Origin: Candidatus Iainarchaeum sp.
GTDB lineage: Archaea > Iainarchaeota > Iainarchaeia > Iainarchaeales > 0-14-0-20-30-16
Assembly (NCBI GenBank): GCA_028710695.1
Contig: JAQTTP010000002.1
Span: 60,001-92,000, forward strand
Reading direction: 5' to 3'
Length of the DNA stretch: 32,000 nucleotides
The position numbers and the translations under genes were made by a program. Of this stretch, positions 1 to 24,631 are shown in pieces. The notes beneath the pieces were generated by a model. The model was not told the origin of the DNA and did no database searches. It saw nothing but the letters and a program-made list of their open reading frames with translations. The stretch's first letter is position 1. Each line of letters opens with the position of its first letter.

Positions 1-780
1 ATCAATGTCACAAAAATTAAAATATTTTGCTACTTCTTTTTTCCAAAAATAAATATTTCTTTTTCTAATTCCATCAGGCTGTTGATAATTTCTAGGCCCT
101 AAATTCCTTACTTTTTTGTCTTTAAAATTATAATTTACTCCAGGCATTTCTGACAAAGAAGCATAATCTTTAGTCACAATTCCTTTTAATACATCTTCAC
201 CACGGTCAGTAACAGTTCCAACAAAAACAAAATCAAAACCCAGATCCAACAAATAGTCTTCATACCCTTCTACACCAGTTCCAGAAGCCAATAAAACAAT
301 TTTTTCGCCATATTTTGATTTTAGATATTTGCCCACTTTTCCAACTTCAGTTATTCTGCTTTCAAAAGGAGTAGTACACACAAATAAGTCTACAGAATCA
401 ACCAGTTCATCAAAGCTTTTTATTGACTCTATAGGAACACCAATGTTTCTGAGTTCTATGTTGGATTTGCCATACTCTATTTTTTTATATACTGGACCCA
501 AATATTTGTTTTTCCATGAAGACGATATAAATAAATTTCTTGGGACCGCAGAAAGATTCAATAATTTAGATTCTAATTTTATATTTCCCAAAGCACTTTG
601 TAATTGCCTTATAGCAGATAAAATAGAAGTAAATGGATAATTTATTTGCCCATCATAACTTAAGACTTTTCCATCCGAACCAATTAGTTCAAATAATTTT
701 GAATCCTTGGATGGAACAATCTTCAGCTGAATGTCTTGGGGCTTTATCCAGCAGATTTTTATCTTATCCAAATTTATCAC
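1..780 (-). CDS. Hypothetical protein, N-terminal part only (gene continues past window start); cobalamin-binding-like/Rossmann-like domain pattern
   Basis: Absent from the supplied ORF track. Translating the minus strand from 780 down to 1 gives 260 sense codons with no stop (VINLDKIKICWIKPQ...VDLFVCTTPFE...GEKIVLLASGTGVEGYEDYLLDLGFDFVFVG...MPGVNYNFKDKKV). GTG at 780-778 is the first possible start, 9 nt after the gyrB stop. The strand/helix spacing resembles the N-domain of B12-binding radical SAM enzymes, but no CxxxCxxC motif lies inside the window, so function is unproven. Confidence 0.5.
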   Translation of the reverse strand, partial: MINLDKIKICWIKPQDIQLKIVPSKDSKLFELIGSDGKVLSYDGQINYPFTSILSAIRQLQSALGNIKLESKLLNLSAVPRNLFISSSWKNKYLGPVYKKIEYGKSNIELRNIGVPIESIKSFDELVDSVDLFVCTTPFESRITEVGKVGKYLKSKYGEKIVLLASGTGVEGYEDYLLDLGFDFVFVGTVTDRGEDVLKGIVTKDYASLSEMPGVNYNFKDKKVRNLGPRNYQQPDGIRKRNIYFWKKEVAKYFNFCDID

Positions 781-789
781 AAAACAATT

Positions 790-5207
<4,418 letters not shown>

Positions 5208-12115: not shown

Positions 12116-13414
12116 TTATTTCTTAAATGCACTTGCGGTTTTACCTGCATCCCAAGTTGTTCTTGGCCTTATCTTTACAAGCCACAATTTCTCAGAATTA
12201 TCGTCCAATATTAATGCATAACCTTTTGCTCTAGGCATTCTTCCAAAATATTTGTCCATATCTTCATACAAATAACTTGGCCTCAAAGCAGCAACAGCAT
12301 CAATATCTGGCTTTGCAGTCATTCTCATACTAATGAAAAGATCACACTGCGAGATTGCATCAGGATGTAATTTCTCAGGCCTCTGTGTAGCCAATAATAG
12401 ACTTAATCCTGGTTGTCTTCCAACTCTTACCCATTCTAATAAAACATCCAATGCCATACTCGGCCTATCCTTAGGCATGAACATGTGGGCTTCATCAATA
12501 AGCATCCAAATCATTGGAAGATCATTTTTCTTTTCGCCCTCGCTAATTAAGGTTATTTCTTCTTTTTTTCTTTCAAGCATTCTTTCTTCATATAATCTTT
12601 TTCCAATTAATGCAACAATGATCTCTCTTATGTTCTCCATTCCCAAAACTTGGCCGTAAGTAGAAACATCAATTATATTTATTGTTCCAGGCTTTGCCAT
12701 CTCTCTAACGCTAGTTCCATTCTTTGAAAATATACCCCAAGATTCTGCAACATCAAATCTATTCTTCAAACTTATCTTTGTATCTTTGTCATAATCTGGC
12801 AACAAATCAATTGTTGATTTTAGTTCTTTAATTCCATAATAAGTTCCAAAAGTATCTTTTGCTTTTTCAACTACGTCCAATAATAGCGCAGATTCTTTGT
12901 CGTTCCAGCCCAACTTAAACATTGAGAACCATTCCATTGGATCTAAGTCTGCAGTTTTTATTGTAAAAGCACCATCTACTGGCATCTTGTTTTTCTGATA
13001 AAATTCTAATTTGCCTTCCGGAACCATAACTCTTAGGTTTTCCATTCCTTCTGGCTCCAAACCCCATTCTCTTATAGAAGATTCTTCTTCTTTATTAGCT
13101 AATTTCATACTCCAAAAGATCCCAACAGTATCAATTACAAAAATAGACATTCTGTTTCTCACATCTACAGGTAGTTTTGTAAACCCTTCCATAAAAACAG
13201 ACATTGTGTAGGACTTTCCTCCACCCCTCTTACCACAAATAAGAACAACGTGCGGAGCAGCAAGGTCAACTAGAACTTTTCTTCCCAAAACTGGGCTTTC
13301 TCCAGAACTCATTACAACCTTTGCAAGGAATCCTGTTCCTTTTGCCCCATATTTTGTTATATCCTTTTCAGGACGGCCAACAATAATATCATCACTAGCA
13401 AGCTCAAATGACAT
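12116..13414 (-). CDS. HerA/FtsK-superfamily P-loop ATPase (DUF87-like), short paralog
   Basis: Walker A LICGKRGGGKSYT, Walker B WMLIDEAHMF, and LLLATQRP. Full-length collinear similarity to residues ~130-560 of the 890-aa protein at 16073-18745. Own TATA-like box (CTTTATATATTA) in the 13415-13511 spacer. Confidence 0.8.
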   Translation of the reverse strand: MSFELASDDIIVGRPEKDITKYGAKGTGFLAKVVMSSGESPVLGRKVLVDLAAPHVVLICGKRGGGKSYTMSVFMEGFTKLPVDVRNRMSIFVIDTVGIFWSMKLANKEEESSIREWGLEPEGMENLRVMVPEGKLEFYQKNKMPVDGAFTIKTADLDPMEWFSMFKLGWNDKESALLLDVVEKAKDTFGTYYGIKELKSTIDLLPDYDKDTKISLKNRFDVAESWGIFSKNGTSVREMAKPGTINIIDVSTYGQVLGMENIREIIVALIGKRLYEERMLERKKEEITLISEGEKKNDLPMIWMLIDEAHMFMPKDRPSMALDVLLEWVRVGRQPGLSLLLATQRPEKLHPDAISQCDLFISMRMTAKPDIDAVAALRPSYLYEDMDKYFGRMPRAKGYALILDDNSEKLWLVKIRPRTTWDAGKTASAFKK

Positions 13415-13511: not shown

Positions 13512-13736
13512 TTAAGGAGTGATCATTATTAAAGAGTCCCCTCTTAACATTGCTTTTCCGTATTTTACTTTTACGCTGTTGTCTTCTTCTAATGATTCTG
13601 CATCATCTAATACAACATTCATGTGTACATCAAAGGCAACTAATTTACCCCTGATCTTTACATTTCCTTTCATTAAAACTAATACTGGTTTTCCGATCCA
13701 ACTATTCAAGTGGTCGAAAGGTCTATCTTCTGCCAT
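13512..13736 (-). CDS. Archaeal Sm-like (LSm/SmAP) RNA-binding protein
   Basis: 74 aa. Sm1-like KPVLVLMKGNVKIRGKLVAFDVHMNVVLDDAE and Sm2-like MLRGDSLIMI. GGAGGA SD 7 nt upstream. Confidence 0.88.
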   Translation of the reverse strand: MAEDRPFDHLNSWIGKPVLVLMKGNVKIRGKLVAFDVHMNVVLDDAESLEEDNSVKVKYGKAMLRGDSLIMITP

Positions 13737-13751
13737 TTTAATTCCTCCAAA

Positions 13752-13781
13752 CTACCTTCCAAAAAGCCTTTTTAGCCAAGA
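13752..13781 (-). repeat. Orphan duplicate of the minD 3' end (would encode SWLKRLFGR-stop)
   Basis: Ungapped alignment with 13828-13857 matches at 24 of 29 compared positions (hand alignment). Differences are TTA to CTA (synonymous Leu), TCA to GGA (Ser to Gly) and TGA to TAG (stop to stop). A TAA lies 13 codons upstream in that frame and there is no start codon. Confidence 0.7.
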
Positions 13782-13827
13782 AAGCTTTTTGCGTTAAGCA
13801 AAAAGTTTCAGGGTTCTAAAGCTTTTT

Positions 13828-14601
13828 TCACCTTGAAAAAAGCCTTTTTAACCAAGCAAAGAATCCTCCGCCTTGCTTTTTAATATCTATTTCTATACCT
13901 AAGATCTTTCCGGCAACAACATATACTGCCTTTGATGCTTCAGCATCGGGATTACGTAAAATTACCGGCTGTATCTTCTTATAATAGAATGTTTTTCTTA
14001 CCTCTTCATCATATGGCACTACACCATATAGTGGGAGCTCAAGCATACTGATAATATCTCTTTCAGGAATTTCTCCCTTTAATCCAGCATACATATTAAT
14101 TATCAACCCAACTGGCTTTGCATTTATTCTTTGTGCCGCAATTTTTGTTTTCAAAGCATCAGCTATTGATAAAGAATGTGGGTTCACAACCAAAAACACC
14201 TCTGTTGAGGATGCCATTGCTGCCAAGGTATCTTCCCCTATTCCCGCAGGACAATCTAATAATACAAAATCGTATTTTGGTGCTACTTGTTTTATTATTC
14301 CAGGCAATTTAGTTAAATCCAATCTCTGAGTATCTTGCAATCCTAATGACGCAGGCATTATACTTACTTTTTCTGGGCCGTCATAAACAACATCCCAAAC
14401 CCCTGCATCGCCTTTAAGTACATCATTCAAAGTTATTGGGCTTGTTTCCATTCCTAAAATTAAACTTAGGTTAGCCATTGCCAGGTCAGTATCAACCATT
14501 AGCACTTTCTTTCCTTGCCTTGCTAATGCAATACCCAAATTAGCAACTATTGTTGTTTTTCCAACACCACCTTTTCCAGAAGCAAACGCAATAATTCTCA
14601 T
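13828..14601 (-). CDS. minD: MinD/ParA-family ATPase with C-terminal amphipathic membrane-targeting helix
   Basis: Deviant Walker A SGKGGVGKTT, then MVDTDL and FVLLDCPAG. C-terminus is GGGFFAWLKRLFSR. The track start (14613) is a TTG. ATG at 14601 gives the typical MRIIAFASGKGG N-terminus and has GGTGAT 4 nt upstream. Confidence 0.88.
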   Translation of the reverse strand: MRIIAFASGKGGVGKTTIVANLGIALARQGKKVLMVDTDLAMANLSLILGMETSPITLNDVLKGDAGVWDVVYDGPEKVSIMPASLGLQDTQRLDLTKLPGIIKQVAPKYDFVLLDCPAGIGEDTLAAMASSTEVFLVVNPHSLSIADALKTKIAAQRINAKPVGLIINMYAGLKGEIPERDIISMLELPLYGVVPYDEEVRKTFYYKKIQPVILRNPDAEASKAVYVVAGKILGIEIDIKKQGGGFFAWLKRLFSR

Positions 14602-14616
14602 CAATATCACCAAAAA

Positions 14617-15087
14617 TCAAACTTTTACAAAAGACATTATTTTTCTATACTCTTCAAGAAAAATATTCTTTCCATGCACTGCAATATCTTTAGCCACCGC
14701 ATTTAATTCAAATTCGCACAGCCTTGTATCACTTTTTATCATATATACAAATTCATCTTTTTCAAACATGCTTACCCAGCTTCCAACATTAAAATAAAGA
14801 ACTTTATTTTCTCTTTTAAAACTGGAAAACATTTCGTAAAGCTTGTTTGCTAATTCTAATATGTCTGGAGATGAAGAGTAGATCAAACTGTTTTCTTTAA
14901 AAACAACAACGCCCTCTATCAGATGTTTATGCAAAAGACTATCTACAAATTCTCCAAAAGTGTTTTTTAAAATTTCTGGAACTGAGTATTCTTTAGAAAT
15001 ATCTTTGATGTAGCCAATTTGTTCTGCGGGCAATTCTGTGTCATCAATCCCCAGCAGTTTAAATGCTAATTTTGAAAATAGCCCCAT
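14617..15087 (-). CDS. Hypothetical small protein; N-terminal amphipathic peptide plus possible Roadblock/LC7-like fold
   Basis: Its ATG directly abuts the stop of the upstream gene (TAG-ATG). The N-terminus is MGLFSKLAFKLLG. The segment order (FGEFVDSLLHKH / IEGVVVFKEN / SLIYSS / PDILELANKLYEMFSSF / VLYFNVGS / WVSMFEKDEFVYMIKS) fits an alpha-beta-beta-alpha-beta-beta layout. The fold assignment is by eye only. Confidence 0.6.
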   Translation of the reverse strand: MGLFSKLAFKLLGIDDTELPAEQIGYIKDISKEYSVPEILKNTFGEFVDSLLHKHLIEGVVVFKENSLIYSSSPDILELANKLYEMFSSFKRENKVLYFNVGSWVSMFEKDEFVYMIKSDTRLCEFELNAVAKDIAVHGKNIFLEEYRKIMSFVKV

Positions 15088-15576
15088 CTATATCCCTATA
15101 TTTCCCAATCCAATCTCTTTTAGCAGACCGTATTTGTCCTTACCAACCGAAGACTTATCTATATATTTCTCTACTAAAGAAGCTTTATATTCCTTTACGT
15201 AATTATCGAATAATTTCTGATTATTCTGCGATTTGAATAGGATCTTATCATTAAAGGTAACTATTAGCTCCATCTGCTCAGAGGTAAGTTTGAATACATC
15301 AAAACACCCAAATTTTGATGCAAATGAATTAAAAAACAAAGTTGCACTTTCGTCACCATAAACAGATTTATCAAAAGACAAAAAAGAATGCACAGATCCA
15401 ATAACATTTCCAAGTTTAAAGAATATTGCCCCATCTTCAAACCCAAAGCCATTATTATTTGTTACAGAAATATATCCACTAAATTTTTTATTTTCCAAGT
15501 CACTTATTACTTTTCTAACATCGACTTTTGCAACTGAAATATTTTCTGCAACTCTTTCGCCTGTAGGAATATTCAT
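15088..15576 (-). CDS. Hypothetical small protein, DUF4388/DUF2226 (PATAN-like) pattern
   Basis: VDVRKVISDLENKKFSGYISVTNNNGFGFEDGAIFFKLGNVIGSV...YGDESATLFFNSFASKFGCFDVF follows the 'L..l...k.tG.l.v....g.i.f..G.iv.a...G.eA....l....G.F.f' pattern of that family. AGGTG SD upstream. Family assignment by eye. Confidence 0.6.
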   Translation of the reverse strand: MNIPTGERVAENISVAKVDVRKVISDLENKKFSGYISVTNNNGFGFEDGAIFFKLGNVIGSVHSFLSFDKSVYGDESATLFFNSFASKFGCFDVFKLTSEQMELIVTFNDKILFKSQNNQKLFDNYVKEYKASLVEKYIDKSSVGKDKYGLLKEIGLGNIGI

Positions 15577-15590
15577 AAAATCACACCTAA

Positions 15591-16049
15591 CTATCTTCTT
15601 TCTTTATCTAATATAATAACATAATCCGCAGAATTCTTTAATGCTGCACCAGAAGATTCATCAACTAAAATTACAGCAACATCTTTTCCATGCTGTTTTG
15701 CTTTAACAATTACTGGCAAAAAGTCTGAATCTCTTGTTACTAAACAAATCATATCAATATGCTGATTGAAAACTGTTTCAGTTGCTTCAACAGCCATTAT
15801 TACATCAATATCAGAAACACAAACAGAAACTTCAAAGCCCTGATTTATTACTGCTTCAACTAATTTTCCTGGTGCAAATTGGTTCAAATAAACTTTTCCA
15901 ATTTTCATAGTTCCCATTTTATTTATTAGCCCTTTTATTTTTCCTAAATCCAAACTAAATTCTTTTCTCAACATGTTTGGACCATCAATAAAAACAGCAA
16001 TATTTTTTGCGGTTTTTTTCTTCAACCTACTCAAAACACTCTCAAACAT
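15591..16049 (-). CDS. NYN/LabA-like (PIN-fold) domain protein, putative ribonuclease
   Basis: IAVFIDGPNM, then VSDIDVIMAVEA, then LVTRDSDFLPVIVKAKQHGKDVAVI, then ADYVIIL. This is the acidic-residue pattern of LabA-like NYN domains. AAGGTG SD upstream, 23 nt after the 890-aa gene. Confidence 0.8.
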   Translation of the reverse strand: MFESVLSRLKKKTAKNIAVFIDGPNMLRKEFSLDLGKIKGLINKMGTMKIGKVYLNQFAPGKLVEAVINQGFEVSVCVSDIDVIMAVEATETVFNQHIDMICLVTRDSDFLPVIVKAKQHGKDVAVILVDESSGAALKNSADYVIILDKERR

Positions 16050-16072: not shown

Positions 16073-18745
16073 TTACTCCACTTTATGTCCATAATAACTA
16101 TCAAATAAAGCAACTTGGCTTGAAACTTCATCCTTAAACATATACTCTTTTCTTAACAAAGTATCAATGTTTTCAATCTTTATATTTTTCCAAATTGTTC
16201 CTATTAAAGATCTCAAACTTTCCATACTTATTCTTGGATCCAAAATATGTTCTTGCTCAACTTCATGCTCCATCAAATTAATATCTGACAATGAAGATAA
16301 TAATTTTGTTTTTGGATTCTGCGGAACATCCATTGATTTTATTACGAAATAAACATTTCTTCTTCCCCTTTTTTCTTTTCTTACTAAACCCGCACCAATA
16401 AATCTATCCATCATATTCTTCAATTTGATTTCACCAAAATTGCTTACTTCTCCAAGATATTCTACATCAAAACCCTTATTCTGTGGAAGTTTCAACAACA
16501 ATCTTAAATCATCTGCATCAAATGCTTTAATTTCATTTAAACCTTTTGAATATACAAAAGCATTATCCATATCATGTACAAACTCTATTTTCACAGGATC
16601 AACATAGCACAAGTTTGTAACAAATCCGCCATCATCACTATAAACTTTATAGTCTACTTTTAATATTGGCCTATAAACTGTACTAACAACATAATTATTC
16701 CAAGATAAACTTCTTTTTGCAATCCCATCAATCTGTTCTTTATTGTATTTTTCTTCCATTACTGGATATTTTACTTTTTCTCTATATTCTTCTTGCTCTT
16801 CATCTTTTTCTATGTAAATATATTCATCTTCTAATTGTGCACCTTTGTCAACTAACTTTGCCAAAAATTTATCAAAAGAAATTTCTGCTTTGTATTTCAT
16901 ATTCAAAATTTTCAAAAGAGTTTTTACAGAATGCAAATCTAAAGAGCCATACCTGTCTAACTTACTCAAACCAATTTCGCCCATGATGTCCAATAATTCT
17001 GATTCCTTGTAATGATATTTAACTTCTGCAGTCTGTGTTTCTCTACCCTCGTGCTGTGACATTCTCGGCCTTACTTTCAATACAAACGCCCTAGAAGTTG
17101 TTTCAACTCTATCTGCAACTAATGGAACACCAACCTCTAATCTCTTTATGAAACTTGGCTTTCTGAATTCTGCAGGCACAATTGTTGGAATTCTTCTATA
17201 TACTGCTTTAATATCATCATCAAATACAAGCTTGTATGAAATCAAAGTTCCAACTTGTGACAAAACCCTTGTATCAATTGCTGATGGTTGCTGTGTTGCA
17301 AATATTAAAGAACATCCAGGCCTTCTTCCTTGCTTAACATATTCTATCAATGCTTTTGATGCTGGAGTTTCAAGGGTTCCGGATGGTATTAGTGTGTGCG
17401 CTTCATCAATAAACAACCAAGTTGGAGGAACATCCATTTCTAAATTATCAACTTTGTTATTTTCTTCTTCGCTGAACTTTTTAACTGCTTGATTTCTTGT
17501 TGCAATTTTTCTTGCTGCTAAAATCCTTCTTGCTAAAACACCAACTAAAAGTGCTGAAACTGTTTCATCCAAAAAACTAACATCAATTATTGTTAATTGC
17601 CCTGGAACAGAAATCTCCATTAAAGGAGTACCATTCTTTGCAAATACACCCCAAGATTTTGCTGCTTCAAATCTTGAAACCAATGCTCTCAGAGAATCTC
17701 TTTTATAACCCTTGTCTTTTGAGTTTATTTCTGCGTCATCTCTTAAACAATTTATTATATCATCAATATCAAAATTACTTCCTTTTCCTTTTACAATTAA
17801 ACTATCCATTGTTCTATACCCATCTTTAATTTTTGTTAATGATTTTTCTAACAATAATCCTAATGGACTAAATCTGTCTAATCCAAATGTTAAAGCCCAA
17901 TCTTCTGCAGTCAAGAAAGATGGCTGAATTGTAAAAATTGCATCATATGTTTCTTTTGGAGTTTTTGACTTTGCCCCTTCTGGGATAAATACAAACACAT
18001 TATCTAATCCTTTTGGCTCTAAGCCCCACTCTCTTAGTTGCTTAACTTCACTATCTTGCCTATTTGGGTATTTCATACTCCAAAAAACACCAACAGGATC
18101 TATTACTACCATCCCAACATTCTGGTTCTTCAGGGCCAGCTCTTCTGCTATTACTCCCAAAACATAGGACTTTCCAGATCCCCTTGAACCACATACAAAC
18201 ATTACTTGTGGATCCAAAGAATCAAAGTATACTTCTTTTGCCTCTTCTCCAGTTTCATAAACTTTTCCTAAAAATAATGCCGCTTCTTCCCCGTATTTCT
18301 CAAACACAGACTTCTTTCTTCCAACCATTGCATGGCCAGTCAAAGGGTTTTCTAAAAAAGACAAAGGTATATTTCCTGGAGCATTCAAAAAAGTAGAATT
18401 ATTCTCTATAACATCGCTTTCTTCTGTTTCTATTTCACTAGGCTCGTCTGCAAGCACAATAGGCTCTTCAGGCAATACAACAGTTTCATTGTTCTCTGTA
18501 CCAATCTCTTCTTCTTTTGGGTCTTCAACTTTCACTTTCTTTGCTCTTGTTCTCTTTGGTTTACTTATAGGAGCCAAAGTAGATCCTGTTTCGCCTACAT
18601 TGATTTGGTTTGTCTCATTTTGTTTGCTTTCTGTTTGACTTACTTCTGACTCTTCTTTTTTGTCACCATTGGAGTAAACAACTGTTTTGCCTTCTTCCTT
18701 GTTGTTTGTTCCGTCCATATCATCAAAGAGATCAAATAAGCCCAT
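16073..18745 (-). CDS. Large HerA/FtsK-superfamily ATPase with disordered N-tail and ~330-aa C-terminal extension containing a winged-helix-like segment
   Basis: Residues 1-~130 are low complexity: MGLFDLFDDM, acidic stretches, and the basic patch KPKRTRAKKVKV. Core motifs: Walker A FVCGSRGSGKSY, Walker B WLFIDEAHT, LIFATQQP. C-extension includes LLLKLPQNKGFDVEYLGEVSNFGEIKLKNMMDRFIGAGLVRKEKRGRRNVYFV (wHTH-like). A TTTTATATA box and GGTG lie upstream. Confidence 0.82.
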   Translation of the reverse strand: MGLFDLFDDMDGTNNKEEGKTVVYSNGDKKEESEVSQTESKQNETNQINVGETGSTLAPISKPKRTRAKKVKVEDPKEEEIGTENNETVVLPEEPIVLADEPSEIETEESDVIENNSTFLNAPGNIPLSFLENPLTGHAMVGRKKSVFEKYGEEAALFLGKVYETGEEAKEVYFDSLDPQVMFVCGSRGSGKSYVLGVIAEELALKNQNVGMVVIDPVGVFWSMKYPNRQDSEVKQLREWGLEPKGLDNVFVFIPEGAKSKTPKETYDAIFTIQPSFLTAEDWALTFGLDRFSPLGLLLEKSLTKIKDGYRTMDSLIVKGKGSNFDIDDIINCLRDDAEINSKDKGYKRDSLRALVSRFEAAKSWGVFAKNGTPLMEISVPGQLTIIDVSFLDETVSALLVGVLARRILAARKIATRNQAVKKFSEEENNKVDNLEMDVPPTWLFIDEAHTLIPSGTLETPASKALIEYVKQGRRPGCSLIFATQQPSAIDTRVLSQVGTLISYKLVFDDDIKAVYRRIPTIVPAEFRKPSFIKRLEVGVPLVADRVETTSRAFVLKVRPRMSQHEGRETQTAEVKYHYKESELLDIMGEIGLSKLDRYGSLDLHSVKTLLKILNMKYKAEISFDKFLAKLVDKGAQLEDEYIYIEKDEEQEEYREKVKYPVMEEKYNKEQIDGIAKRSLSWNNYVVSTVYRPILKVDYKVYSDDGGFVTNLCYVDPVKIEFVHDMDNAFVYSKGLNEIKAFDADDLRLLLKLPQNKGFDVEYLGEVSNFGEIKLKNMMDRFIGAGLVRKEKRGRRNVYFVIKSMDVPQNPKTKLLSSLSDINLMEHEVEQEHILDPRISMESLRSLIGTIWKNIKIENIDTLLRKEYMFKDEVSSQVALFDSYYGHKVE

Positions 18746-21559: not shown

Positions 21560-22786
21560 TTATAACCTATATATTGCCTCTGCCAATTTCTTAGAATCAT
21601 GCCTTATAGCCACTCTGTCATTTATTAAATCTGCACAAATGTATTTTTTATCTTGAGTTTGTAAAGGTTCAACAAAGAATTTCTTTTCTGCAGCATAATT
21701 CTTTAGCTTATCCCCAGATACTTTTGTGTTGTTCATCAAAATGTAATCCGGATCAAAATATTTCTTTATTCCTGCAATAAAATCTAATGCTTTAAAACCA
21801 TGAGTTTCTGGGTATTGAGTCATAACATTCATCACATAAACTTTCTTTGCTTTTGACTTCTTTATCTCTTTTACAATATCATTAACCAACAGATTTGGAA
21901 TTACACTTGAATATAAACTTCCAGGCCCAACAACAATTAAATCCGCGTCCTTTATTGCTTCTTTTACTTTTGGATTTAGTTTTGCTTCTTGGTTCAAAAA
22001 AATGTCTTTTATATTCAACCCTTTTGTATCAATTTCGTGCTCTCCAAAATATTTTTGGCCGTCTTTTGAAATTGCAATTACTTCCACATTATCAAGAGTC
22101 ACAGGGAGAACTTTTCCCCTACATCTTAGCAAAGTTTGCATAGTTTCTATTGCTGTCTCAAAATCAGAGTCTTGTGCTAATCTAGTTAATAACAAATTCC
22201 CAATTGTATGCCCTTGCAAAGAAGTATTTTTTCCAAATCTTTTATTAAAAATCATCCTTAAGTCATCCTTAAATGGACTTAAAGCAATAATACAATTTCT
22301 CAAATCCCCCGGTGGCAAAACTCCAAATTCTGTTTTTAATAATTGTGATGATCCTGCAGAATCCATCGTAGTAACAACTGCAGTTATATTGGATGTATGC
22401 TCTTTCAATCCATTCAATAAAGTATATTGTCCTGTTCCCCCGCCAATAGTAACTATTTTTTTACCCTTACTTAATGTAGAGTCTAAATACACATTTTCAA
22501 ATAAGTCTTTATTTGCATTTGAAAAGAATTTGTAAATTTTATATATTGAAAATAAAATTATGATTCCTGCAAGAATAATTAATATTACTGCAATAAATGC
22601 TCTTGCAGAAACATTCAAATCAAGTAAGGCATTAAATTTAGACAAAATTATTGTAGATAGTTTGTTAAAATAAGTCAAGAACCCAATAAAAAATGCAATA
22701 AATACTAAAATCATGCTAAGAACAATACCTATAATCCACAATTTGAGATTAGAAGTTAAAAATAAAGCTTTATTTAACCGATTCAT
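21560..22786 (-). CDS. CofD/YvcK-family (UPF0052) protein with N-terminal two-helix membrane anchor
   Basis: KIVTIGGGTGQYTLLNGLKEH..NITAVVTTMDSAGSSQLLKTEFGVLPPGDLRNCIIAL and VVGPGSLYSSVIPNL are family hallmarks. Two long hydrophobic helices precede the domain. The track ORF extends to 22927 and overlaps the thrS start. I use the ATG at 22786 (MNRLNK...). Start uncertain. Confidence 0.75.
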   Translation of the reverse strand: MNRLNKALFLTSNLKLWIIGIVLSMILVFIAFFIGFLTYFNKLSTIILSKFNALLDLNVSARAFIAVILIILAGIIILFSIYKIYKFFSNANKDLFENVYLDSTLSKGKKIVTIGGGTGQYTLLNGLKEHTSNITAVVTTMDSAGSSQLLKTEFGVLPPGDLRNCIIALSPFKDDLRMIFNKRFGKNTSLQGHTIGNLLLTRLAQDSDFETAIETMQTLLRCRGKVLPVTLDNVEVIAISKDGQKYFGEHEIDTKGLNIKDIFLNQEAKLNPKVKEAIKDADLIVVGPGSLYSSVIPNLLVNDIVKEIKKSKAKKVYVMNVMTQYPETHGFKALDFIAGIKKYFDPDYILMNNTKVSGDKLKNYAAEKKFFVEPLQTQDKKYICADLINDRVAIRHDSKKLAEAIYRL

Positions 22787-22855
22787 AGAAAATATTAGAC
22801 CTTTAAGATTATAAATTATTCCTATTATCTTATATTTATAAATGGAGGAATAGCT

Positions 22856-24631
22856 ATGGATGTAATCGAAAAAGTGAACTTTGCCAATGAAAAAGATAAA
22901 GAGGTCTATTGGCACACAACTGCACACATACTGGCTGCTGCAGTAAAGAGGTTATATCCAACCACAACCATAGCTATAGGTCCAGCAATAGAAAATGGAT
23001 TCTATTATGATTTTGACAATCTAAACATCATTGAAGAAGATCTAAAAAAAATTGAGGAAGAAATGTCAAAAATAATCAAAGAAAAACTTCCAATGAAAAA
23101 AGAAGTTGTAAGCAAAAAAAAGGCATTAGAAGTCTTCAAAAAAGAAATTTACAAAACAGAACTTATTAACGATTTACCAAAAGATGAAGAAATTTCTTTA
23201 TACCATCTTGGAAAAGAATTTACAGATCTTTGTAGAGGCCCACATCTAGCAAATACAGGAATGATTGGAGAAGTAAAACTTCTTAGCATTGCGGGAGCAT
23301 ACTGGAGAGGAGACGAAAAAAATAAAATGCTAACAAGACTTTATGGAATAAGTTTCCCTGATAAAAAGCAGCTAAGAGTTTATTTAGAATTATTAGAAGA
23401 AGCAAAAAGAAGGGATCACAGAAAACTAGGAAAGAAATTAGATTTATTTGTGTTCTCTGAACTTGTAGGCCCAGGATTACCATTATGGACTCCGACAGGA
23501 AATATTTTCAGAAATGAAATAATTAATTTTTCAAGAGAATTACAAAATGCAATTGGATATCAAGAAGTTCATACTCCACAGATCACAAAAGCAGAATTGT
23601 TTAAAATTTCTGGGCATTACAACAAATATAAGGATGACATGTTTAAAGTAATTTCAAACTACTCTAAAGATGAATACTTCTTGAAACCTATGAATTGCCC
23701 AAACCACACACAAATTTATGCGTCGTTACCAAGAAGCTACAAAGACTTGCCTATAAGATATGCAGATTTTGCAATGCTTTACAGAGATGAAAAACCTGGT
23801 GAACTTTCAGGATTAGCAAGAGTAAGAAGTTTCTCACAAGACGATGGTCACTGCTTTTGTACTCCAGAGCAGATGAAAGAAGAGTTCTTGAATGTTCTAA
23901 AATGTATAAACGCGGCTCTAAAAGTTTATGGATTAAACTATTATGTTAGACTATCCTTAAGAGATGAAAATGCAAAAGAAAAATATTTAGGAAATGATGA
24001 AATCTGGAACAAATCCCAAAAAGCATTAAAAGATCTATTAAAATCAGAAAAGATCTCCTTTGTTGAAGCCCCTGGAGAGGCAGCATTCTACGGCCCAAAG
24101 ATGGATATAATGGCTAAAGATGCTTTGAACAGAGAATGGCAGATTTCCACAATTCAGTTAGATATGAACTTGCCTGAGAGATTTGAACTTAAATACACAG
24201 ACAAAGATAATACTGAAAAAAGGCCAATTATGATACATAGGGCATTAATTGGAAGCCCAGAAAGATTTGGTGCAGTTCTTATTGAGCACTTTGCAGGGAA
24301 GTTCCCTTTGTGGCTAAACCCAAGGCAGATTCTTGTAGTTCCTGTTGCAGAGAACTTCAACAAATATGCACAAGAAGTTTGTGATTCTTTGAAAGCTTAT
24401 GGCCTAAGAGTAGACATTGATCTAAGAGAAATAACAATGAACAAAAAGATCAGAGATGGAGAGATGCTTTACTACAACTACATTTTAGTTGTTGGAGAAA
24501 AAGAAGCAAGCACAAAGAGTGTAAATGCAAGAATCAGAGATACAAAAACACAAAAGACTCTAACTACACAAAATTTTAAAGAAAAGGCATTGGTAGAATA
24601 CAAAAAGAGAGAACTAAAAAGTTCTCTTTAA
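22856..24631 (+). CDS. thrS: Threonyl-tRNA synthetase, bacterial-type editing domain, no TGS domain
   Basis: WHTTAHILAAAV and CRGPH (N2 editing/SAD domain). MNCPNHTQIY (Zn site). RVRSFSQDDGHCF and HRALIGSPERF (class II core). GGAGGA SD 7 nt upstream. An in-frame TAG at 22796-22798 excludes a longer N-terminus. Confidence 0.92.
   Translation: MDVIEKVNFANEKDKEVYWHTTAHILAAAVKRLYPTTTIAIGPAIENGFYYDFDNLNIIEEDLKKIEEEMSKIIKEKLPMKKEVVSKKKALEVFKKEIYKTELINDLPKDEEISLYHLGKEFTDLCRGPHLANTGMIGEVKLLSIAGAYWRGDEKNKMLTRLYGISFPDKKQLRVYLELLEEAKRRDHRKLGKKLDLFVFSELVGPGLPLWTPTGNIFRNEIINFSRELQNAIGYQEVHTPQITKAELFKISGHYNKYKDDMFKVISNYSKDEYFLKPMNCPNHTQIYASLPRSYKDLPIRYADFAMLYRDEKPGELSGLARVRSFSQDDGHCFCTPEQMKEEFLNVLKCINAALKVYGLNYYVRLSLRDENAKEKYLGNDEIWNKSQKALKDLLKSEKISFVEAPGEAAFYGPKMDIMAKDALNREWQISTIQLDMNLPERFELKYTDKDNTEKRPIMIHRALIGSPERFGAVLIEHFAGKFPLWLNPRQILVVPVAENFNKYAQEVCDSLKAYGLRVDIDLREITMNKKIRDGEMLYYNYILVVGEKEASTKSVNARIRDTKTQKTLTTQNFKEKALVEYKKRELKSSL

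Follow-up and report, generated by a model that had tools for sequence, protein, structure and literature searches.

A nearly universal HerA-clade ATPase family of Iainarchaeota with a motif-bearing disordered tail and a winged-helix/PepSY-like arm: a candidate DNA-pumping motor

The archaeal HerA of the HerA-NurA system is built on a RecA-like core with a HerA-type helical insert and an N-terminal barrel. The same fold is used by the defence HerAs (Sir2-HerA, DUF4297-HerA, and TdpAB), while EssC/EccC and VirB4 are protein-secretion ATPases within the FtsK-HerA superfamily. The bacterial translocases FtsK, SpoIIIE, and SftA consist, in this order, of a localising part, an extended flexible linker, a ring motor from this superfamily and, at the C-terminus, a winged helix (called the gamma domain in FtsK). 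FtsK recognises chromosomal motifs and interacts with Xer recombinase, and the SftA of B. subtilis is soluble. To our knowledge, no FtsK is recognised in archaea. Here, we analysed a long HerA-type ATPase of the Iainarchaeota, a phylum of tiny-celled archaea with minimal genomes. The literature that we searched contained no paper on this family, nor on DUF2226, which is encoded in the operon downstream.

The gene lies in a window of 32,000 nucleotides, by which we mean the whole stretch of DNA that was analysed. Its translation has no internal stops. See Table 1 for the coordinates of all features. We sampled 151 genomes from across Iainarchaeota/Diapherotrites (DPANN). At a threshold of E <= 1e-80, 144 of them contain a long-form match, in every case as a single frame; among the 55 high-quality genomes, 54 do. 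A total of 274 long-form loci were confirmed in species-representative genomes. Full-length homologs are 40–94% identical, and genomes nearly always carry one long-form copy, surrounded by variable housekeeping genes; no long-form match was found on plasmids. The named records are all assigned to Iainarchaeota/Diapherotrites, except for a handful of bins that bear the labels Chloroflexi/Chloroflexota, Falkowbacteria, or Thaumarchaeota. A first-pass annotation of this DNA had proposed a three-part protein, and this architecture is real and conserved: an acidic N-terminal tail, a HerA-fold core, and a C-terminal module. We rejected the idea that the C-terminal extension is a separate gene joined on by a fusion or frameshift artefact, as the protein is encoded in one frame in the genomes sampled and homologs across the phylum have the same architecture.

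Table 1. Features of the long ATPase gene and its paralog, in window positions.
Feature	Residues	Position	Strand	Basis or remark
Long HerA-type ATPase gene (P0001), complete	890 aa	16073..18745	(-)	Single open frame
Disordered acidic N-terminal tail	1-116	18398..18745	(-)	AF2 pLDDT <50
Short linear motif GLFDLFDD	2-9	18719..18742	(-)	Local form of family motif D-h-F-[DE]-[DE]-h-[FL]
Basic patch KPKRTRAKKVKV	62-73	18527..18562	(-)	Read from sequence
HerA-fold ATPase core	122-573	17027..18382	(-)	Pfam DUF87 and HerA_C, VIA structural comparison
Walker A GSRGSGKS	186-193	18167..18190	(-)	Invariant positions in 71 homologs
Walker B WLFIDE	443-448	17402..17419	(-)	Invariant positions in 71 homologs
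Winged helix 1, conserved LN-KYK motif	581-646	16808..17005	(-)	AF2 pLDDT >90
PepSY-like alpha/beta domain 1	about 657-735	16541..16777	(-)	AF2 element order beta-alpha-beta4
Winged helix 2, basic wing RKEKRGRRN	741-803	16337..16525	(-)	VIA, TrmB matches in homologs
PepSY-like alpha/beta domain 2	about 814-885	16091..16306	(-)	PF03413 in homologs, AF2 pLDDT >90
Core-only paralog P0002	432 aa	12116..13414	(-)	Separate phylum-wide family, not a conserved neighbour

The core of the long ATPase adopts a HerA fold. Pfam assigns DUF87 to residues 182–408 (55.5 bits, cut-off 23.2) and HerA_C to residues 437–544 (22.3 bits, cut-off 22). In VIA comparisons, the AF2 model of the core aligned best with Sulfolobus HerA (4d2i_B) at a Z score of 32.3 and an rmsd of 3.9 over 345 residues, followed by Thermococcus HerA (9x1m_A) at a Z score of 29.2; the two alignments span about 345–374 residues. 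Foldseek likewise placed HerA closest (E of 4e-18). Z scores were lower for the defence HerAs (22–28), VirB4 (25.4), TrwB (20.4), FtsK (18.4–18.9), and EccC (18). At the level of sequence the relationship is distant. The core is only 16–19% identical to solved HerA structures, and a profile search against PDB HerA sequences gave a partial match (E of 6e-7 over about 100 residues). The canonical HerA equivalog models of NCBIfam, NF040819 and NF040937, gave 42.7 and 29.6 bits, far below their cut-offs of 970 and 800, respectively. P0001 had no reported match to the FtsK motor model PF01580 at E <= 0.01; in the homologs examined this model scored 12–14 bits, below its cut-off of 24, and reached E <= 0.01 in only 5 of 50. 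The protein thus belongs to the HerA clade of the FtsK-HerA superfamily at the fold level, with intact GxxGxGKS and hhhhDE motifs.

The catalytic positions are strictly kept. Across 71 homologs, G186, G189, G191, K192, and S193 of Walker A and W443, D447, and E448 of Walker B are invariant, as are Q472-G473-R474 and T484-Q485-Q486-P487 further downstream; column conservation over the core is 0.7–0.93. The long ATPase and archaeal HerA have in common the two Walker motifs and QGR with its arginine, along with the RecA-like core, the helical insert, and what looks like part of the N-terminal barrel. In the AF2 model, a beta mini-domain of four short strands (about residues 125–180, about 55 residues) precedes Walker A and corresponds in the alignment to the later portion of the HerA barrel. 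The VIA alignments begin at chain residue 79 of Sulfolobus HerA (model 122–573 against chain 79–475) and at residue 35 of Thermococcus HerA. Because so few residues precede Walker A and the alignments start this late, the N-terminal HAS barrel looks shortened or partial in the model. By analogy with HerA, the core is predicted to form a hexameric ring that translocates double-stranded DNA. Unlike archaeal HerA, the long ATPase has no conserved NurA beside it among the window's neighbour genes, and unlike the solved HerAs it adds a motif-bearing disordered tail and a 320-residue arm of the form (wHTH/PepSY-like) x2.

This arm accounts for the extension of about 330 residues that had been noted as lacking a counterpart in the 432-aa paralog, and residues 569–890 do fall outside the paralog alignment. 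A winged-helix-like segment had been pointed out there (residues 759–801), and it lies within the second winged helix; the module is richer than that, with two winged helices and two PepSY-like domains alternating in the order wHTH/PepSY-like/wHTH/PepSY-like over residues 581–885 at a pLDDT of 92 (AF2). The three-helix bundle and beta-hairpin wing that define the winged helix-turn-helix fold are present. The first winged helix resembles the WHB domains of APC2 and cullin (VIA Z score of 9.3, model 17–82) and is roughly neutral, with a median charge of -1. The second matches wHTH domains of the MarR/ArsR/Fur type (VIA Z scores of 9–10.5, rmsd of 1.2–2.0, 62 residues aligned) and has a median charge of +3 in 71 homologs. 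Of 50 homologs, 22 matched TrmB (PF01978), the best of them at an E of 2.6e-8, while the wHTH sequence of P0001 itself stays under Pfam thresholds. Column conservation of the wHTH domains is weak (0.36–0.40). Winged helices can bind proteins instead of DNA.

The PepSY assignment comes from homologs. The C-terminal copy matched PF03413 in P0030 (34.4 bits) and P0108 (29.1 bits), above the gathering score of 24; overall, PepSY was matched in 13 of 50 homologs, and P0001 itself had no match. The equivalent of the first PepSY-like domain in P0022 gave a weak score of 13.6 bits, below the cut-off. In fold searches with the whole module, wHTH matches filled the results and hid the PepSY-like part. 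The family ends in the consensus IDA-TGK. Among 1.84 billion (1.84e9) representative proteins, the module was found only inside the long-ATPase family. We looked for stand-alone or differently fused copies and rejected the candidates; the short matches begin inside the ATPase (e.g., MSQHEGR...) and are therefore fragments of it.

At the other end of the protein, the MGLFDLFDDM start and the basic patch are present as the first-pass annotation described them. The region is acidic and disordered rather than merely of low complexity. Its net charge of -17 equals the family median, and column conservation is 0.15–0.3 outside the motif. A loose regular expression recognised an N-terminal motif in 92 of the 121 homologs, and the misses visibly include further variants. 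Of 83 tails, 44 contain the strict form, D-h-F-[DE]-[DE]-h-[FL], whereas shuffled sequences yield a mean of 0.1. When we scanned DNA with the back-translated motif, 36 of 55 matches lay just upstream of a long-ATPase core; the reversed-pattern control gave 10 matches. Judged from these scans, the N-terminal motif appears essentially specific to the long-ATPase gene in these genomes. No second protein with the same motif was found, as the off-gene matches lay inside a membrane protein or antisense and were as numerous as in the control; we therefore rejected a docking partner shared through a second motif-bearing protein. A conserved short N-terminal motif of this kind fits partner docking, in line with the suggestion that the peptide points toward partners. 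The accompanying suggestion of membrane tethering is unlikely; the motif is acidic-aromatic in a strongly acidic tail, quite unlike the basic amphipathic C-terminal helix of MinD. Orders outside the main one lack the N-terminal tail (e.g., G004 and G017). Therefore, the docking peptide would not be essential to core function.

DNA tethering by the tail regions had also been put forward, and this is supported in part. The basic second winged helix is a plausible contact. The basic patch recurs loosely: 51 of the 82 homolog tails contain a K/R-rich window (at least 6 K/R per 10 residues), but its place varies from tail to tail.

Since almost every Iainarchaeota genome keeps the long ATPase, and given its architecture, it is probably a housekeeping DNA motor. 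We lean toward reading it as a vertically inherited family of ring ATPases in the HerA clade, so far uncharacterised and nearly universal in Iainarchaeota, that pumps DNA and carries a docking tail. Most likely it would serve the cell as a housekeeping translocase of dsDNA that binds DNA through a tail of its own and docks onto a partner through its peptide. In such a mechanism, the core would assemble a HerA-like ring, hydrolyse ATP at the subunit interfaces, and pump double-stranded DNA through the channel. Each subunit would add a C-terminal arm, in which the second, basic winged helix may engage nucleic acid and the first winged helix and the PepSY-like domains may serve as scaffold or regulatory surfaces. 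The disordered acidic tail of about 115 residues would present the short peptide and so dock the motor onto a putative partner. Near-universality, strong conservation, and an FtsK-like order of parts in a minimal-genome phylum make this HerA-branch motor a candidate for housekeeping DNA handling, concrete and testable, in a role of the chromosome-clearing or segregation type. In the papers, Pfam, NCBIfam, and PDB entries that we searched, the (wHTH/PepSY-like) x2 arm, the conserved docking peptide, and cytoplasmic PepSY-like domains on a DNA-motor scaffold are all new. The docking peptide offers a direct experimental handle on the partner.

A more specific possibility is that the long ATPase is a division-coupled chromosome translocase, an analogue of FtsK or SftA, with the peptide recruiting it to the FtsZ/SepF divisome and the winged helices orienting it on the chromosome so that the closing septum is cleared of DNA. 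The docking element, long disordered linker, hexameric-type motor, and C-terminal wHTH mirror the layout of FtsK/SftA, and the gene is near-universal, nearly always in a single long-form copy. G000 encodes two FtsZ proteins and one SepF, and within this genus the gene stands at the head of a minD-containing operon. PMC9320952 describes SftA as recruited by SepF. However, the MinD operon is kept without the ATPase at all 23 other loci checked, the wHTH domains are poorly conserved, and the motor is of the HerA branch (Z score of 32) rather than the FtsK branch (18.9). Furthermore, the long ATPase lacks membrane helices, has no hydrophobic segment in its N-terminal tail, differs from FtsK in having two winged helices interleaved with PepSY-like domains instead of a single gamma domain, and gave no evidence of chromosomal-motif recognition or Xer recombinase interaction. 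The FtsZ tails DDEFGLDYL and LDDFDIGY of G000 made mimicry of the SepF-binding peptide attractive, a weak lead only. Across 18 genomes, the FtsZ tails follow [DE]-L-G-[IL]-[DE]-[FY], which matches the archaeal GID-type SepF-binding peptide (PMC8178401). This pattern differs from the motif of the long ATPase, so FtsZ-tail mimicry is not supported. We consider a division-coupled translocase unlikely. A broader proposal is equally tentative: in Iainarchaeota, and possibly in further archaea, a HerA-branch motor would take on the task of FtsK, as a soluble translocase convergent with FtsK/SftA that its peptide recruits to the division or segregation machinery and its winged helices guide on the chromosome.

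Downstream of the long gene lies an operon of NYN, DUF2226, orf156, MinD, and Sm genes, with the NYN (PIN-like) gene 23 nt away. Among 98 other loci, this operon follows the ATPase only in L037 and L038, and elsewhere the five-gene cluster is conserved without the ATPase (in 19–23 of 23 loci); we therefore rejected a functional operon as a general property, and the long gene is independent of this operon. No conserved partner gene was found beside it. At 6 of 19 loci the long gene is followed by an ORF of about 100 aa, and at one more locus this ORF sits about 4 kb downstream. Pfam gives no match for it, neither profile search nor tblastn detected it in G000, and we rejected it as a conserved downstream partner.

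The long ATPase could still be a repair or recombination motor, a variant of HerA-NurA end resection whose nuclease is encoded elsewhere, either an orphan NurA or, in this genus, the NYN protein. HerA is the closest fold, and the NurA of G000 has no adjacent HerA; it sits alone on contig C11 beside pheT and glycosylation genes. Inteins favour DNA-metabolism genes, and they occur in this family: at least 14 genomes have open frames of more than 1300 aa for the long ATPase, an intein makes up the added length in all three of these homologs that had precomputed Pfam domains listed, and the L038 protein has an insert beside the P-loop. Against this, G000 has a better candidate for a repair HerA, a third HerA-type gene that encodes 497 aa with a DUF87 score of 115 bits and is followed directly, on C23, by a PDDEXK nuclease. 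The NYN gene belongs to the separate MinD-Sm operon, and among the window's neighbour genes (NurA was not a query) no nuclease was conserved beside the long gene at the 98 other loci. The HerA equivalog models also stay at 30–43 bits against cut-offs of 800–970. We consider a repair motor improbable.

A motor acting on RNA or protein instead of chromosomal DNA, with the arms as substrate or partner adaptors, is decidedly improbable. VirB4 and EccC share the fold, the first winged helix resembles protein-binding WHB domains, PepSY domains are usually protein-protein modules, and the operon in this genus encodes an NYN RNase-type protein and an Sm protein. However, this adjacency is lineage-specific, the closest structures are DNA-translocating HerAs, and the second winged helix is basic and of the MarR/ArsR DNA-binding type. 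The long ATPase also has no transmembrane segments and no secretion-system neighbours.

The shorter paralog had suggested a specialised pair or a hetero-oligomer. Most genomes of the phylum encode both proteins, usually as two matches per genome with the second at a distant site, and the two cores align colinearly, beginning at the mini-barrel and ending at the last strand. In this genus (L038), P0002 adjoins the long gene, on the same strand and about 2.7 kb apart. This holds in this genus only, so the pairing has no support from gene order: in the 18 other genomes for which 9 kb to either side of the long gene was covered, the two genes are not adjacent, and in G001 they are separated by 300 kb. 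P0002 is only 32% identical to the long ATPase (over residues 140–568 of the latter), while members of its own family share 57–77% identity. Core-only HerA-like ATPases of about 420–450 aa, found in DPANN and other archaea, have the same mini-barrel start and the same end, without the N-terminal tail or the C-terminal arm. In a protein atlas, such relatives are widespread in other archaeal phyla, where the long form was not shown, a lead only. An obligate hetero-oligomer, in which mixed rings would carry fewer tails per ring, is very improbable.

A mobile-element or anti-phage defence ATPase (of the Sir2-HerA, DUF4297-HerA, conjugative-coupling, or packaging kind) is scarcely credible, as the partial PADLOC HerA and mad8 matches (no more than 70 bits, covering part of the core) and the core-only relatives on haloarchaeal plasmids (30% identity) stand against a chromosomal, near-universal gene, nearly always single-copy, in variable housekeeping neighbourhoods, with no adjacent effector, integrase, or capsid genes, no long-form match on plasmids, and scores of 42–43 bits for the NCBIfam anti-phage models NF042943 and NF042944 against cut-offs of 800–850. 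Outside Iainarchaeota, the atlas also contains clusters of 667–766 aa in Methanobacteriota, Thorarchaeota, Bathyarchaeota, and Nanobdellota, which we note as leads.

The first-pass annotation had divided the 890-aa HerA-type ATPase (long ATPase) into a tail of ~130 aa, a core at about residues 130–560, and an extension of ~330 aa, and this three-part layout was borne out by Pfam and by an AlphaFold2 model built with 71 homologs as input. In Pfam searches, DUF87 (the HerA central domain) spans residues 182–408 and HerA_C spans residues 437–544. The model has a pLDDT below 50 for residues 1–116 and high confidence from ~125 to the end. The short paralog is 32% identical to the long ATPase in an alignment confined to residues 140–568 and, as had been claimed, has no counterpart of the extension. 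Homologs of the long ATPase align full length, with core columns 70–93% conserved and, from residue 125 through to the C-terminal end, a column occupancy of ~1.0. The extension is therefore kept in homologs, and its origin as an assembly or frameshift fusion is ruled out.

Features of the long ATPase, its neighborhood, and related genes elsewhere in the same genome (G000)
Feature	Location	Strand	Remarks
Long ATPase ORF	16073-18745	minus	single 890-codon frame
wHTH1	residues 581-646		long ATPase arm
Alpha/beta domain 1	residues ~657-735		long ATPase arm
wHTH2	residues 741-803		long ATPase arm
Alpha/beta domain 2	residues ~814-885		long ATPase arm
Short paralog	12116-13414	minus	432 aa
NYN (TIGR00288) / DUF2226 / 156-aa protein / archaeal MinD / 74-aa Sm	13512-16049	minus	tight cluster
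Sm/LSm-like ORF	13512-13736	minus	74 aa (MAEDRPFDHLNSWIGKPVLVLMKGN...); between MinD and short paralog
CofD/YvcK-like gene	21560-22927	minus	PF01933, 271 bits
Third HerA-type gene	contig C23:3875-5788 (L152)		497 aa; DUF87 115 bits
NurA	contig C11:15006-16007 (L151)		orphan; beside pheT and glycosylation genes

Both Foldseek and VIA-align ranked HerA structures at the top for the core. It superposes on Sulfolobus 4d2i_B with a Z score of 32.3 and an R.M.S.D. of 3.9 over 345 residues, and on Thermococcus 9x1m_A with a Z score of 29.2 (Foldseek E value 4e-18), and scores lower against DndH-C (26.6), VirB4 (25.4), TrwB (20.4), and FtsK (18.9) than against HerA. However, solved HerA structures share only 16–19% identity with the long ATPase, and NCBIfam HerA equivalog models give it 30–43 bits against cut-offs of 800–970. 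Thus, it has a HerA-clade fold, yet is not a canonical HerA. The third HerA-type gene of this genome ends at a TGA, and a PDDEXK_15 nuclease gene follows directly.

The C-terminal extension forms an arm of alternating wHTH and PepSY-like alpha/beta domains, and was modeled by itself with a pLDDT of 92. The winged-helix-like segment that had been picked out from sequence lies inside the second wHTH, which superposes on MarR/ArsR/Fur-type DNA-binding domains with Z scores of 9–10.5 and an R.M.S.D. of 1.2–2.0 over 62 residues. The first superposes on cullin/APC2 WHB domains (Z score 9.3). By net charge, wHTH2 is basic (median +3) and wHTH1 about neutral. Among 50 homologs, TrmB was matched in 22 and PepSY in 13; in two homologs, the C-terminal copy scores above the gathering threshold of PepSY. 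When the arm alone was used as a query against 1.84 billion representatives, all 41 matches were long-form proteins or their fragments.

With a median net charge of −17, the N-terminal tail is acidic, and its only conserved element is a short motif, D-h-F-[DE]-[DE]-h-[FL]. In the long ATPase's own clade the motif comes immediately after the start (MGLFDLFDD, MFDIFD...), lending support to the annotated start codon; outside this clade it lies 6–63 residues from the start. A strict regular expression matched 44 of 83 tails versus a mean of 0.1 in shuffles. The back-translated DNA pattern gave 55 matches in 151 genomes, 36 of them directly upstream of the ATPase core, compared with 10 for the reversed pattern used as a control; the off-target matches inspected fell within a membrane protein or antisense frames. 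The conservation of the motif is in line with a putative docking peptide. The tail is entirely absent from two out-group orders (G004 and G017). The archaeal FtsZ C-terminal peptide that binds SepF is NEDQLDDFIDGIF, with GID near-invariant (PMC8178401). Mimicry of this peptide by the motif is not supported, because FtsZ tails from the same genomes have a different pattern, [DE]-L-G-[IL]-[DE]-[FY]. Iainarchaeota FtsZ paralogs (L117, L118, and L121–L150) end in this conserved pattern, e.g., IDLGIEFT and DLGLDFI, and these tails fit the archaeal GID-type SepF-binding tail.

We sampled 151 genomes across the phylum, taking E ≤ 1e-80 as a long-form match. The long form was found in 144 (54 of the 55 high-quality genomes), five had a match at paralog level only, and two had no match of any level. 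The window's own genome is 0.9 Mb and 86% complete. Named homologs belong to Candidatus Diapherotrites/Iainarchaeum, among them Iainarchaeum andersonii, Forterrea multitransposorum, and AR10; candidate relatives from outside the phylum came up as atlas leads only. At least 14 sampled genomes have open frames of 1339–1584 aa for the long ATPase; in the three such homologs with precomputed Pfam domains listed (P0005, P0015, and P0036), an intein accounts for the additional residues. In locus L038 (6600-7858), an insert splits the ATPase gene at or beside the Walker A loop (P-loop). Four loci labeled Chloroflexi, Falkowbacteria, or Thaumarchaeota (L045, L094, L105, and L115) carry an Iainarchaeota ATPase gene at 47–56% identity; these labels are probably binning or labeling errors in public MAGs.

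The data support the long ATPase as a vertically inherited, probably important ring ATPase of the HerA branch with its own putative nucleic-acid-binding arm and docking peptide. From its fold and basic wHTH, we infer that it translocates DNA. Because its parts come in an order resembling that of FtsK/SftA, a role coupled to division or segregation is the reading of greatest interest, if an unlikely one; no specific link to the divisome emerged in any test made. A role in defense or mobile elements is very unlikely.

On the minus strand of the window, the order is long ATPase, NYN, DUF2226, 156-aa protein, archaeal MinD, Sm, short paralog, and phosphoribosyltransferase. The ATPase stands ahead of the NYN-to-Sm cluster only in the two closest relatives, L037 (91% identical) and L038 (81% identical). 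The cluster occurs without the ATPase in 23 other genomes and is absent from 96 other ATPase loci; its conservation across the phylum, in 19–23 of 23 loci outside the window, does not depend on the HerA-type gene. At its C-terminal end, the window's MinD has a basic amphipathic segment, FFAWLKRLFSR. The Sm ORF, which escapes ORF lists with an 80-aa minimum, was called by eye and by conservation in 20 of 23 loci. The short paralog is found across the phylum elsewhere on the chromosome, e.g., 300 kb from the long ATPase in genome G001. The remaining neighbors of the long ATPase are variable housekeeping genes. A small ORF of ~95–126 aa (L021:11533-11829, L022:11243-11623, and five more) directly follows the ATPase on the same strand in 6 of 19 loci; in one further locus, it is ~4 kb downstream. 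This ORF has no Pfam match and was not found in the window's genome. In 16 of 80 other loci, a homolog of the window's CofD/YvcK-like gene lies immediately downstream of the long ATPase in convergent orientation; in small genomes, this proximity may be a coincidence.
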